Shown one piece after another: positions 8,174 to 9,556 of a DNA stretch of 64,000 bases. Position numbers and translations under genes: made by a program. This DNA comes from Escherichia phage EP_H11. A model generated the notes under the pieces. That model made no database searches. It saw only the letters and a program-made list of their open reading frames with translations, and was not told the origin of the DNA. The DNA lies in sequence record OP688485. One strand, written 5' to 3'. Within the stretch, counting starts at the first letter, position 1, and every line of letters begins with the position of its first letter.

Positions 8174-9556
8174 ATGTCCGATTCAAAGGTAGTTACCTGG
8201 GGGACGGTGCTAGTAACGGTAGGTATAATACTTGCCATTATGTTAGCTCCCACCCAGTTTGGTGCTGTAATGGACTGGAGTAAGTCTGTATTCATATCTC
8301 AGTATGGATTCATATTTACCTGGTCTTCGCTGATCTTCCTGGCGTTCCTGGCATTCTTTGTATTCAGCAAACATGGTAACATTAAGCTGGGCAAAGGTGC
8401 TCCGAAGTATAATCGCTTTACCTACTACTCCATGATGTTTAGTACTGGTATGGGCGTATCCATGATTTATTATGGCGTACTCGAGCCTATGTACCATCAG
8501 CAGGAGGGTATGTCCGAACGTCAGAATATGGTAACTACCTTCTTCGACTGGGGACTTAACGCATGGGCTGTGTATGCAGTCGTAGGAGTGGCATTCGGGT
8601 ACTTACTACATGTACGTGGCGAAGATCGTCCTCTTAACCAGTTATTTAAGTCCAGATCTCTGAATAACCTGAATACGATCAGTCTGTTATTCTCCACTAT
8701 CATCGGCCTGACCCTGTCGTTCGTCTACGCAGTAGGTCCTATTAGTTCAGGATTTAAAGAGTTCCTGGGAGTGGATATTGGTCCTTACACTATTATCGCT
8801 CTGTTAACTCTGGGTACTGTACTTAGTGCTATTACTGGTGTGGATCGTGGGGTTAAGTGGTTATCCAGATATAACGTAATCGTGGCTCTGACTATTATGG
8901 CATTCGTTGCTGTAAGTGGCACATTCTTCGAATACCTCTGGAAAACCATCACCTATTCCGGAAGCTACCTGCTACAGATTATCCCCATGTCGGTAAACAT
9001 CGGCAGTACTGCTGAAGAGAAGCAATGGTTAGCTAGCTGGCCTTATGCTTACTACGCAGCCTGGGTAGGTTGGGCACTATTCGTCGGAGCGTTTGTGGCA
9101 CGTATTTCTTACGGCCGTACTATTCGCGAACTGATCCTAGGATGTGTGCTGTTCCCTACCATCATCAGTAACATCTGGTTTACGGTATTCGGGGTAGCTG
9201 GTCTGCAACATGGTGCTCAGGATATCTTCCAGCTTCTGGCTAACTTCCCAGGAGGATGGATATTCTCCGTAATTACTCTCGTGTCGGTAATCCTGTTCTT
9301 CATCACAGGACACGATTCGGCAGGTATTACCGTAGAGTCCATGACCGCTCCCAGAACTCGTGTATTCTGGATTGTAAGCATGGGAGTAATTGCCGCAGCA
9401 CTTAACTGGGCTGGTGGAGATGTAGTTACTGTAACGAAGACTCTGGTAGCAGTATCGGCTGTTCCGGTACTAATTGGAGTATTGTGTATTCTATTCGGGT
9501 TCCTCAAGATCTTTGTACCTAAAGTATTCTTGGGTAAGGAAACTCCGCCTGTTTGA
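8174..9556 (+). CDS. BCCT-family (betaine/choline/carnitine-type) secondary transporter
   Basis: Multi-pass membrane protein with the BCCT signature WVGWALFVGAFVARISYGRTIRE and an N-terminal GNIKLG...GMGVSMIYYGVLEP block. Confidence 0.75.
   Translation: MSDSKVVTWGTVLVTVGIILAIMLAPTQFGAVMDWSKSVFISQYGFIFTWSSLIFLAFLAFFVFSKHGNIKLGKGAPKYNRFTYYSMMFSTGMGVSMIYYGVLEPMYHQQEGMSERQNMVTTFFDWGLNAWAVYAVVGVAFGYLLHVRGEDRPLNQLFKSRSLNNLNTISLLFSTIIGLTLSFVYAVGPISSGFKEFLGVDIGPYTIIALLTLGTVLSAITGVDRGVKWLSRYNVIVALTIMAFVAVSGTFFEYLWKTITYSGSYLLQIIPMSVNIGSTAEEKQWLASWPYAYYAAWVGWALFVGAFVARISYGRTIRELILGCVLFPTIISNIWFTVFGVAGLQHGAQDIFQLLANFPGGWIFSVITLVSVILFFITGHDSAGITVESMTAPRTRVFWIVSMGVIAAALNWAGGDVVTVTKTLVAVSAVPVLIGVLCILFGFLKIFVPKVFLGKETPPV

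Follow-up and report, generated by a model that had tools for sequence, protein, structure and literature searches.

The window analysed here, a stretch of 64,000 nucleotides from Escherichia phage EP_H11 (sequence record OP688485), carries a gene for a BCCT-family transporter at positions 8174-9556, directly preceded by the gene for a predicted ATP-grasp ligase. The two genes and the signals around them, all on the + strand, are as follows (TM, transmembrane helix).

7169-7190, + strand: weaker candidate for a terminator-like hairpin, with a 9-bp stem, upstream of the ligase and BCCT genes
7262-8170, + strand: ATP-grasp-fold ligase of an orphan family, 302 amino acids, assigned from predicted structure and motif; conserved partner of the BCCT gene
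8162-8167, + strand: GAGGAA, ribosome-binding site of the BCCT gene within the 3' end of the ligase gene, read from the sequence
8174-9556, + strand: BCCT-family secondary transporter with a minimal 12-TM core; ATG-to-stop open reading frame (ORF) of 460 amino acids, Pfam PF02028
9062-9130, + strand: conserved TM8 and following loop (W297-x-x-W300 ... ARISYGRTIRE), residues 297-319, string WVGWALFVGAFVARISYGRTIRE
9592-9618, + strand: strong terminator-like hairpin and T-run directly 3' of the BCCT gene; 11-bp stem with 7 GC pairs, tail ATTTTTGTGT

Profile searches confirm, far beyond chance, that the product of 8174-9556 is a BCCT-family transporter, as an earlier note on this DNA had proposed for the 460-residue protein. 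Pfam PF02028 (BCCT) matched with E = 1.6e-91 and 307.7 bits (gathering cutoff 27), residues 7-446 aligning with profile positions 1-481 of 485. When sequences of the Protein Data Bank (PDB) were searched with phmmer, BCCT transporters were the sole kind of match: BetP (2.7e-48), the trimethylamine (TMA) transporter (8e-47), BetT (3.6e-39), DddT (7e-27) and CaiT (2e-14). The polytopic membrane topology also held. Hydropathy analysis gave 10 strongly hydrophobic helices, and the remaining two, the glycine-rich TM3 and the aromatic TM8, were recognised via full-length alignment to TM1-TM12 of BetP, indicating a 12-TM LeuT-fold core. The string that the earlier note quoted as the BCCT signature is indeed present at residues 297-319, as a block of TM8 plus loop and not as the PROSITE pattern. 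The classical TM8 pattern, which we take to be [GSDN]-W-T-[LIVM]-x-[FY]-W-x-W-W, has no regular-expression match in this protein, where the sequence is SWPYAYYAAW; this departure is common to a whole clade of short BCCT proteins (see below). All NCBIfam models scored far under their curated cutoffs (glycine-betaine equivalog NF047988, 242.3 versus 650, E 8e-72; bcct subfamily TIGR00842, 234.9 versus 407.55), marking the protein as a divergent member. Since these two cutoffs are not reached, the name 'glycine-betaine transporter' is unwarranted.

The window DNA is ~92.5% identical to that of Escherichia phage vB_EcoM_IME392 (MH719082, 116 kb), its only close relative among 50,697 phage records. 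The genome is that of a lytic-type myophage related to IME392, which bears out the virulent-phage setting assumed previously. The ortholog in IME392, AXY86083.1, has 97.6% amino acid identity and the same gene order, with no difference of substance. It is already annotated as 'putative Bcct family transporter', so the bare family assignment is not new; six neighbouring genes in IME392 are annotated as hypothetical only.

To map the substrate site, the protein was aligned with BetP, Escherichia coli CaiT and BetT, and 15 homologs. The alignment reproduces CaiT residues W142, W147, Y150, W323, W324, Y327 and M331, numbered as in the structural literature. It also reproduces D108 of E. coli BetT (EcBetT), as stated in PMC11323884; because known residue numbers of both CaiT and EcBetT are recovered, we consider the mapping reliable. 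The onium-binding aromatic box is intact (W126, W131, Y134, W297 and W300, equivalent to BetP W189, W194, Y197, W374 and W377). S182 occupies the position of BetP S253 and DddT S204, at which Ser hydrogen-bonds the substrate carboxylate (PMC13270143). Just upstream of W297, BetP residues F369, W371 and W373 are replaced by A292, Y294 and A296, implying a roomier TM8 pocket in this clade. Among the aligned sequences, the triple replacement is limited to this protein and its short relatives; outside the short clade, a Vibrio-phage protein has Ser at 371 and all others retain F369, W371 and W373. BetP W373 corresponds to PsBetT W327, mutation of which impairs choline transport in BetT (PMC11323884), and the choline-type prism of three tryptophans (PsBetT W327, W328, W331) is incomplete, its first Trp being Ala296. 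Polyamines, which had been listed as possible substrates, are not indicated by the binding-site residues.

Signals on the coupling ion are mixed. The Na-site residues T246 and T467 of BetP are retained, whereas T250 is replaced by Leu (L179) and S468 by Gly (G379), and the acidic proton-coupling residue (EcBetT D108/PsBetT D210) is not present, position 153 (Gly in BetP) being Ser96 and not Asp. The protein has no N- or C-terminal regulatory domains. Its tail after TM12, counted from the last BetP-aligned residue, is 14 residues long, compared with 178 in EcBetT and 162 in Luteimonas BetT, and it thus lacks an osmosensing or autoinhibitory C-terminal domain of the kind whose role in BetT osmoregulation has been described (PMC11323884). 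BetP, the Na+/glycine-betaine symporter of Corynebacterium glutamicum (TC 2.A.15), offers a comparison with clear limits: full-length homology, the aromatic box, S253, T246, T467 and an ARIS-x-GR-x-IRE loop are common to both, but identity is ~30% and the window protein has no osmosensing domains, is phage-encoded and is coupled to a ligase. Overall, these features suggest an unregulated carrier of a carboxylate-bearing onium compound that would be bulkier than glycine betaine or choline.

The BCCT gene is under strong purifying selection, with ratios of nonsynonymous to synonymous substitution rates (dN/dS) of 0.030 against IME392 (dS 0.39) and 0.048 against a related locus, L011. Between the window and L011 it encodes the most conserved protein of the region (nonsynonymous divergence pN of 0.072, versus 0.11-0.21 for five other genes). 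These values bear on the idea that the protein has no transport role and is a membrane anchor, a superinfection-exclusion factor or the product of a decaying host-derived gene. Many phage membrane proteins act in such ways and nothing more specific speaks for it, while the ORF is intact and full length, dN/dS is 0.03-0.05, the substrate- and ion-site residues of phage BCCTs are retained over 41-48% divergence, and GC content, overall and at third codon positions (GC3), matches the rest of the phage. We find this explanation scarcely credible.

On metagenome contigs, homology searches returned near relatives with 87-99% identity; more distant, at 40-44% identity, was a small clade of short BCCTs (452-473 amino acids). 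In a bootstrapped neighbor-joining tree, a rough method, the short clade received 100% bootstrap support and the phage BCCTs were monophyletic (94%), with the bacterial proteins P0006 and then P0007 as sisters. This topology is consistent with a single old capture and long retention. P0006 and P0007 resemble the window protein in length (452-463 amino acids), at 37-44% identity, and in having the TM8 aromatics replaced; they differ in being chromosomal and without ATP-grasp or PIG-L neighbours. P0007, a 463-residue BCCT of Zobellella aerophila, is the nearest named bacterial relative (37-40% identity) and, unlike the window protein, has Gly, Thr and Glu at positions 153, 253 and 371, respectively. 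Its gene has an alpha/beta-hydrolase (esterase) gene on one side and BKACE and 3-hydroxyacyl-CoA-dehydrogenase genes on the other, and the locus also holds genes for a GBBH-like dioxygenase, a Rieske oxygenase and three further BCCTs. By comparison with Pseudomonas cdh/hocS-type operons, this locus resembles those for catabolism of carnitine, acyl-carnitine or gamma-butyrobetaine. At 37-40% identity, the neighbourhood is only a hint at what the window protein might carry. A scan of IMG/VR viral contigs with the BCCT clade alignment found no relatives. Other tblastn matches labelled as phage (Staphylococcus, Listeria, Acinetobacter, Salmonella and human-fecal 'Bacteriophage sp.'), at 23-30% identity, were set aside and not used; these records are unannotated fragments or carry host-type gene names, and we judged them likely to be bacterial contigs or contamination.

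The 302-residue partner had no match in Pfam, NCBIfam, PHROG or PDB sequences; its family profile found nothing among PDB sequences and, against Pfam at relaxed thresholds, noise only. An exhaustive hidden Markov model search of 1.84 billion representatives returned the family as 8 clusters only. A first AlphaFold2 model, made from 5 sequences, was discarded (pLDDT 41; Foldseek matches enriched in ATP-grasp proteins but not significant), and the structure was re-predicted after the alignment had been enlarged via the exhaustive profile search. Near structural neighbours of the predicted ligase include the L-amino-acid ligases RizA and BacD. Across nine family members, E256, E270, R274, K140 and R132 are invariant, and N272 is present in all but one, which has Asp. 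These residues form the motif E...E-x-N-x-R, with the acidic and Asn residues that bind Mg-ATP; its counterpart in enzymes of the biotin carboxylase/CPS type is presumably E276/E288/N290/R292 of biotin carboxylase. Predicted structure and motif together assign the partner to the ATP-grasp ligases.

Only 3 nt separate the stop codon of the ligase gene from the ATG of the BCCT gene. With its ribosome-binding site inside the ligase gene, the BCCT gene is, as read from this arrangement, translationally coupled to that of the ligase. The hairpin at 9592-9618 is kept in IME392 and in L011, the latter with a single change that makes an A-U pair G-U, and the 86-nt intergenic region 3' of the BCCT gene folds at -28.9 kcal/mol (z = -2.3).

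The pair lies among the following genes, all on the + strand between 3050 and 15958 (dNMP, deoxynucleoside monophosphate; dNTP, the triphosphate; 5-hmdU, 5-hydroxymethyldeoxyuridine).

3050-6315, + strand: topoisomerase II subunits B and A (Toprim, DNA_topoisoIV)
6420-7160, + strand: protein like S-adenosylmethionine-dependent methyltransferases, 246 amino acids (Methyltransf_25/31/23/11, E = 3e-5 to 1e-3, just under cutoffs)
9643-10254, + strand: PIG-L/LmbE-family de-N-acetylase of the N-acetylglucosamine (GlcNAc) type, 203 amino acids (PF02585, E = 3.4e-14)
10261-11295, + strand: unknown protein of 344 amino acids, kept in IME392 and L011; no Pfam, PHROG or NCBIfam match
11343-12422, + strand: possible GT-B-type glycosyltransferase, 359 amino acids (weak: Glyco_trans_1_2, E = 0.01, under cutoff)
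12422-13393, + strand: 5-hmdU DNA kinase, 5-HMUDK (PF18723, E = 4.4e-35; phrog_2396, E = 9e-41)
13471-14205, + strand: dNMP (thymidylate-type) kinase-like P-loop protein (AAA_28, 2e-9; phrog_2107 'thymidylate kinase', 1e-11)
14202-15275, + strand: thymidylate-synthase (TS) homolog, candidate dUMP hydroxymethylase (PF00303, 2e-11; phrog_3676, 6e-71)
15359-15958, + strand: HD-domain YfbR-like dNMP/dNTP phosphohydrolase (PF12917, E = 1.6e-14)

With a TS homolog and a 5-HMUDK both recognised by profile, the BCCT gene is confirmed to lie within a true 5-hmdU hypermodification island, with the topoisomerase II genes on one side and these two on the other, which agrees with the modification-island location given in the earlier note. 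In a 2025 paper, the DNA polymerase of IME392 was grouped with those of YerA41, SP-15 and Carin-5, whose DNA has bulky thymidine hypermodifications that contain sugar and phosphate, and the TS homolog AXY86077.1 of IME392 appears in Table 1 (PMC12686479). Phage EP_H11 is likewise named in that paper. The PIG-L protein also matched BshB1 (E = 8e-6, under the curated cutoff). Homologs of it at 24-29% identity occur in Campylobacter CP220-like, Vibrio, Stenotrophomonas DLP5-like, Mycobacterium and Arthrobacter phages; because these belong to several unrelated groups, glycan de-N-acetylation seems to be a recurrent phage function. For both the 344-residue and the 359-residue protein, IME392 was the only carrier in the phage collection.

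The ligase and BCCT genes adjoin in the window, IME392 and L011, and again, at 30-48% identity and with rearranged flanks, in two further loci, L008 and L014. Another arrangement, in L015, joins a ligase of the same family to a different transporter. The gene orders outside the window are as follows.

L011: ligase (71% identical), BCCT, PIG-L, proteins of 342 and 359 amino acids, 5-HMUDK, dNMP kinase, TS, HD; upstream genes differ
L008: ligase, BCCT and PIG-L (30%, 43% and 46% identical) with overlapping ORFs, upstream of topoisomerase genes, then dNMP kinase, TS, HD
L014: ligase and BCCT (30% and 41% identical), genes sharing one base (4536), after TS, HD and a primase-like gene
L014, 5912-14536 (Logan SRR30869050), downstream of the pair: glycosyltransferase of family GT4, cupin/mannose-6-phosphate-isomerase-like protein, small cytidylyltransferase (glycerol-3-phosphate cytidylyltransferase-like)
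L015, 204-1785 (Logan SRR14039628): most divergent member of the ligase family (P0101), with an MFS transporter 2 nt after it

By these comparisons, three phage lineages that diverged deeply each have the ligase and BCCT pair. Identities within the ligase family point to the same nearest neighbours as the BCCT tree does. Genes of the TS-like, HD and dNMP-kinase kinds are found in all of the context-rich loci and a 5-HMUDK in 4/5, and in L008 the PIG-L ortholog lies directly 3' of the BCCT gene. L014 further contains an amino-acid:DNA transferase (ADDT; PF18724, 3e-8), a homolog of inositol-3-phosphate synthase (Ino1; 4e-63), HMUD2 and 5-HMUDK, and its gene content suggests a DNA modification containing inositol- or glycerol-phosphate. 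The transporter of L015 matches Sugar_tr (3e-37), and its nearest NCBIfam subfamily is that of the aromatic-acid/H+ symporters. If the ligase depends on an imported substrate, one would expect to see such a change of transporter beside one and the same enzyme family. Moreover, the BCCT and MFS types are both tied to organic acids, in keeping with the activation of carboxylates by ATP-grasp enzymes.

Two functions had been put forward in the earlier note, precursor import and an auxiliary metabolic role in osmolyte uptake, and the locus comparisons favour the first over the second. As an osmolyte importer, the protein would take up a glycine betaine-like compound and keep the infected cell turgid and metabolically active at high osmolarity, as in gut or sewage, and its position beside modification genes would be incidental. 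Osmolyte import is the canonical role of the family; the nearest NCBIfam model is a glycine-betaine BCCT (8e-72) and the nearest solved structure is BetP, the aromatic box and carboxylate Ser are intact, and strong purifying selection is compatible with any real function. However, the equivalog score is far under its cutoff (242 vs 650), and three TM8 aromatics that nearly all other BCCTs compared have kept are replaced. Furthermore, the BCCT gene always lies within a nucleotide-modification region, and it is coupled to and co-inherited with the ligase gene over 30-48% divergence despite rearrangement. We therefore regard osmolyte uptake as quite improbable. Precursor import is favoured because of the ligase coupling, the conservation of the pair across diverged phages, the exchange of transporter family beside the same ligase family in L015 and the lack of an osmosensor domain.

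We put at about an even chance the proposal that the BCCT protein imports a quaternary-ammonium carboxylate and that the ligase attaches it during DNA hypermodification. An ancestor of this phage group would have captured the importer once, from a 'short BCCT' lineage of gammaproteobacterial type. The importer, minimal and constitutively active, would act as a unit with the upstream ATP-grasp ligase. During infection it would enter the host inner membrane and bring in an external onium compound, one not synthesised by E. coli. The likeliest candidate is a trimethylammonium carboxylate related to betaine, gamma-butyrobetaine or carnitine and somewhat bulkier than glycine betaine. The ligase may then activate the carboxylate as an acyl-phosphate and couple it to an amine of the thymidine hypermodification under construction; one candidate is the glucosamine nitrogen that the PIG-L de-N-acetylase could bare from GlcNAc. 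The end product would be a cation-decorated base that protects phage DNA. More tentatively, and with a good deal less confidence, we suggest that an environmental onium carboxylate becomes amide-linked by the ligase to the thymidine side-chain amine, which would yield DNA with permanent positive charges.

The structural neighbours of the ligase also raise the prospect that the ligase and transporter, either by themselves or together with PIG-L, serve to make a small molecule or to modify something other than DNA (a virion protein, the host envelope, or a metabolite of signalling or defence, for instance), and that the transporter imports a building block or exports the product. RizA and BacD make free dipeptide antibiotics, the trio in L008 lies upstream of topoisomerase genes with no 5-HMUDK in view, and PIG-L deacetylases occur in many phages, some annotated near structural genes. 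Set against this, the pair in the window, IME392, L011 and L014 stands amid 5-HMUDK, HMUD2, ADDT, glycosyltransferase and TS-like genes, neither a RiPP precursor nor other genes for small-molecule biosynthesis came to light, and BCCT proteins are not known as exporters, the antiporter CaiT excepted. A target other than DNA is, in our view, unlikely.

A different use of an imported onium compound is found in two Vibrio phages. Rows of three overlapping genes lie at 5824-8822 in locus L009 (Vibrio phage 1.031.O, MG592415) and at 2827-5828 in L010 (Vibrio phage 150E35-1, OX241562). The central BCCT-like gene (411 amino acids; PF02028, E = 1.3e-45) is annotated merely as 'TMhelix containing protein' and overlaps both neighbours, a LicC/LicA-like fusion upstream (CTP_transf_like, 6e-9; Choline_kinase, 6e-6) and a LicD-family gene downstream. 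By its domain content, this module would make up a complete set for choline import, CDP-choline formation and phosphocholine transfer, which implies that these lytic phages direct phosphocholine decoration of some target; a literature search on the module found nothing. All of the TM8 tryptophans are kept in the two Vibrio-phage proteins, in which Asp takes the place of the carboxylate-binding Ser of the window protein; these differences fit choline there and a carboxylate substrate here. LicB, the transporter of the lic system, belongs to a family other than BCCT. The lic system (choline importer LicB, kinase LicA, cytidylyltransferase LicC and transferase LicD) nonetheless follows a logic similar to that proposed for the window, with a dedicated importer for an exogenous onium compound beyond the cell's own synthesis and adjacent enzymes that activate it and attach it to a macromolecule (PMC8890701), and the Vibrio-phage module is an independent example of the same import logic. 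Unlike in lic, no LicA, LicC or LicD homologs were detected around the window gene, and its ATP-grasp activating enzyme implies a carboxylate rather than an alcohol as substrate.

The Vibrio phages and the phosphate-containing modifications of related hypermodified phages (PMC12686479) are what would recommend choline import for phosphocholine-type decoration in the window as well. Against such a function, profile searches around the window BCCT gene gave no sign of a choline kinase, a cytidylyltransferase or a LicD homolog, the first Trp of the 'tryptophan prism' is Ala, the carboxylate-binding Ser is kept, and the partner is a carboxylate-activating enzyme. On the basis of the missing lic neighbours and the TM8 residues, we rejected a lic-like pathway for the window, where it is very unlikely, and retain it for the two Vibrio phages.

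Several points weigh against the proposal that an imported carboxylate is ligated onto DNA. The top NCBIfam match of the BCCT protein is the glycine-betaine equivalog, though far under its cutoff. No amino-acid:DNA transferase (ADDT or aGPT-Pplase) was found by Pfam among the window island proteins, in a search that used E <= 1 for the 344- and 359-residue proteins and could miss a highly divergent homolog. No 5-HMUDK was seen in 15 kb of L008 and no PIG-L in 14.5 kb of L014, so the scheme of three enzymes is not universal. L015 is a short contig of 1.8 kb. The loci that bear the pair all fall within one broad phage group, and their synteny may come partly from common descent. Published thymidine-hypermodification pathways use cytoplasmic metabolites, with no transporter mentioned in the literature searched, and a phage would run a risk in making its DNA modification reliant on a compound from the environment.

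Two kinds of pathway offer points of comparison for the island. In known thymidine hypermodification, 5-hmdU is acted on by 5-HMUDK and then by an amino-acid:DNA transferase and tailoring enzymes (Lee et al. 2018, 2022; PMC5889632, PMC8989533). The window shares the TS homolog, dNMP kinase, 5-HMUDK and HD hydrolase with these pathways. It differs from them, and from the SP-15/YerA41/Carin-5 'RP13-like' group (PMC12686479), in having a transporter, an ATP-grasp enzyme and a deacetylase, which their descriptions do not include, and no ADDT was detected in it. The set of a GT-B-like protein, a PIG-L deacetylase and an ATP-dependent ligase is also reminiscent of another kind of pathway, and in L014 Ino1 and GT4 are added. 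In mycothiol and bacillithiol synthesis, the MshA/BshA glycosyltransferase is followed by the MshB/BshB PIG-L deacetylase and then by an ATP-dependent ligase. This likeness is an analogy only, as the island ligase is of the ATP-grasp and not the MshC/BshC type, and would presumably use an acceptor borne by DNA.

No earlier description seems to exist of a transporter paired with an ATP-grasp ligase inside thymidine-hypermodification islands. A full-text literature search with BCCT and phage terms found nothing, and the hypermodification literature searched makes no mention of an ATP-grasp enzyme or deacetylase. If the proposed import and ligation are correct, a phage-encoded importer linked to a ligase would introduce into thymidine hypermodification a kind of component new to it, namely substrate supply from outside the cell. 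The result would be a new class of modified base and a phage DNA chemistry dependent on the environment, with consequences for evasion of restriction and CRISPR, for how hard these phages are to sequence and for production media in phage therapy. The proposal also gives a function to an orphan ATP-grasp family and offers a route to the substrate of an uncharacterised BCCT clade. Together with the lic-like module of the Vibrio phages, it suggests that cassettes of an importer plus an activating enzyme are a recurring phage strategy. If the protein were instead a plain osmolyte importer, it would remain an example of unusually strong conservation of a secondary transporter in a lytic phage.

Additional features were observed around the island. 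The segment between the topoisomerase A and ligase genes varies among close relatives. Where the window has one methyltransferase-like gene, L011 has instead, at 3674-7578, genes for a DXD glycosyltransferase-like protein, a 340-residue unknown protein, a phosphatidylserine-decarboxylase-like protein (2e-7), a weak second ATP-grasp protein (286 amino acids) and a CxxCxxCC protein. Judging from this gene content, the modification chemistry probably differs between the window phage and the L011 phage. In L008, the topoisomerase II A-subunit gene (9312-11708) contains an intein with an HNH endonuclease domain and encodes 798 residues, versus 415 in the window. The 875 bp at 2175-3049 of the window, flanked by an SbcC/Rad50-like ATPase gene (15-2174) and the topoisomerase B gene, hold no ORF of at least 90 amino acids on either strand. 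In the family-A DNA polymerase of the window (18909-22208, 1099 amino acids), the Pfam polymerase domain match is confined to residues 766-1001; the N-terminal stretch may be an extension like uracil-DNA glycosylase (UDG), as in polymerases of the YerA41/Carin-5 type (PMC12686479).

Matches to sigma-70-like promoters were not enriched in the region (17, versus 20.5 expected from shuffled sequence). Terminator-like sites numbered 16, versus 7.2 +/- 2.4 expected from shuffles. Strong + strand sites with a hairpin and T-run lie at the boundaries of gene blocks (6321-6342, 9592-9618 and 15305-15332), which suggests that the island is transcribed as several short units.

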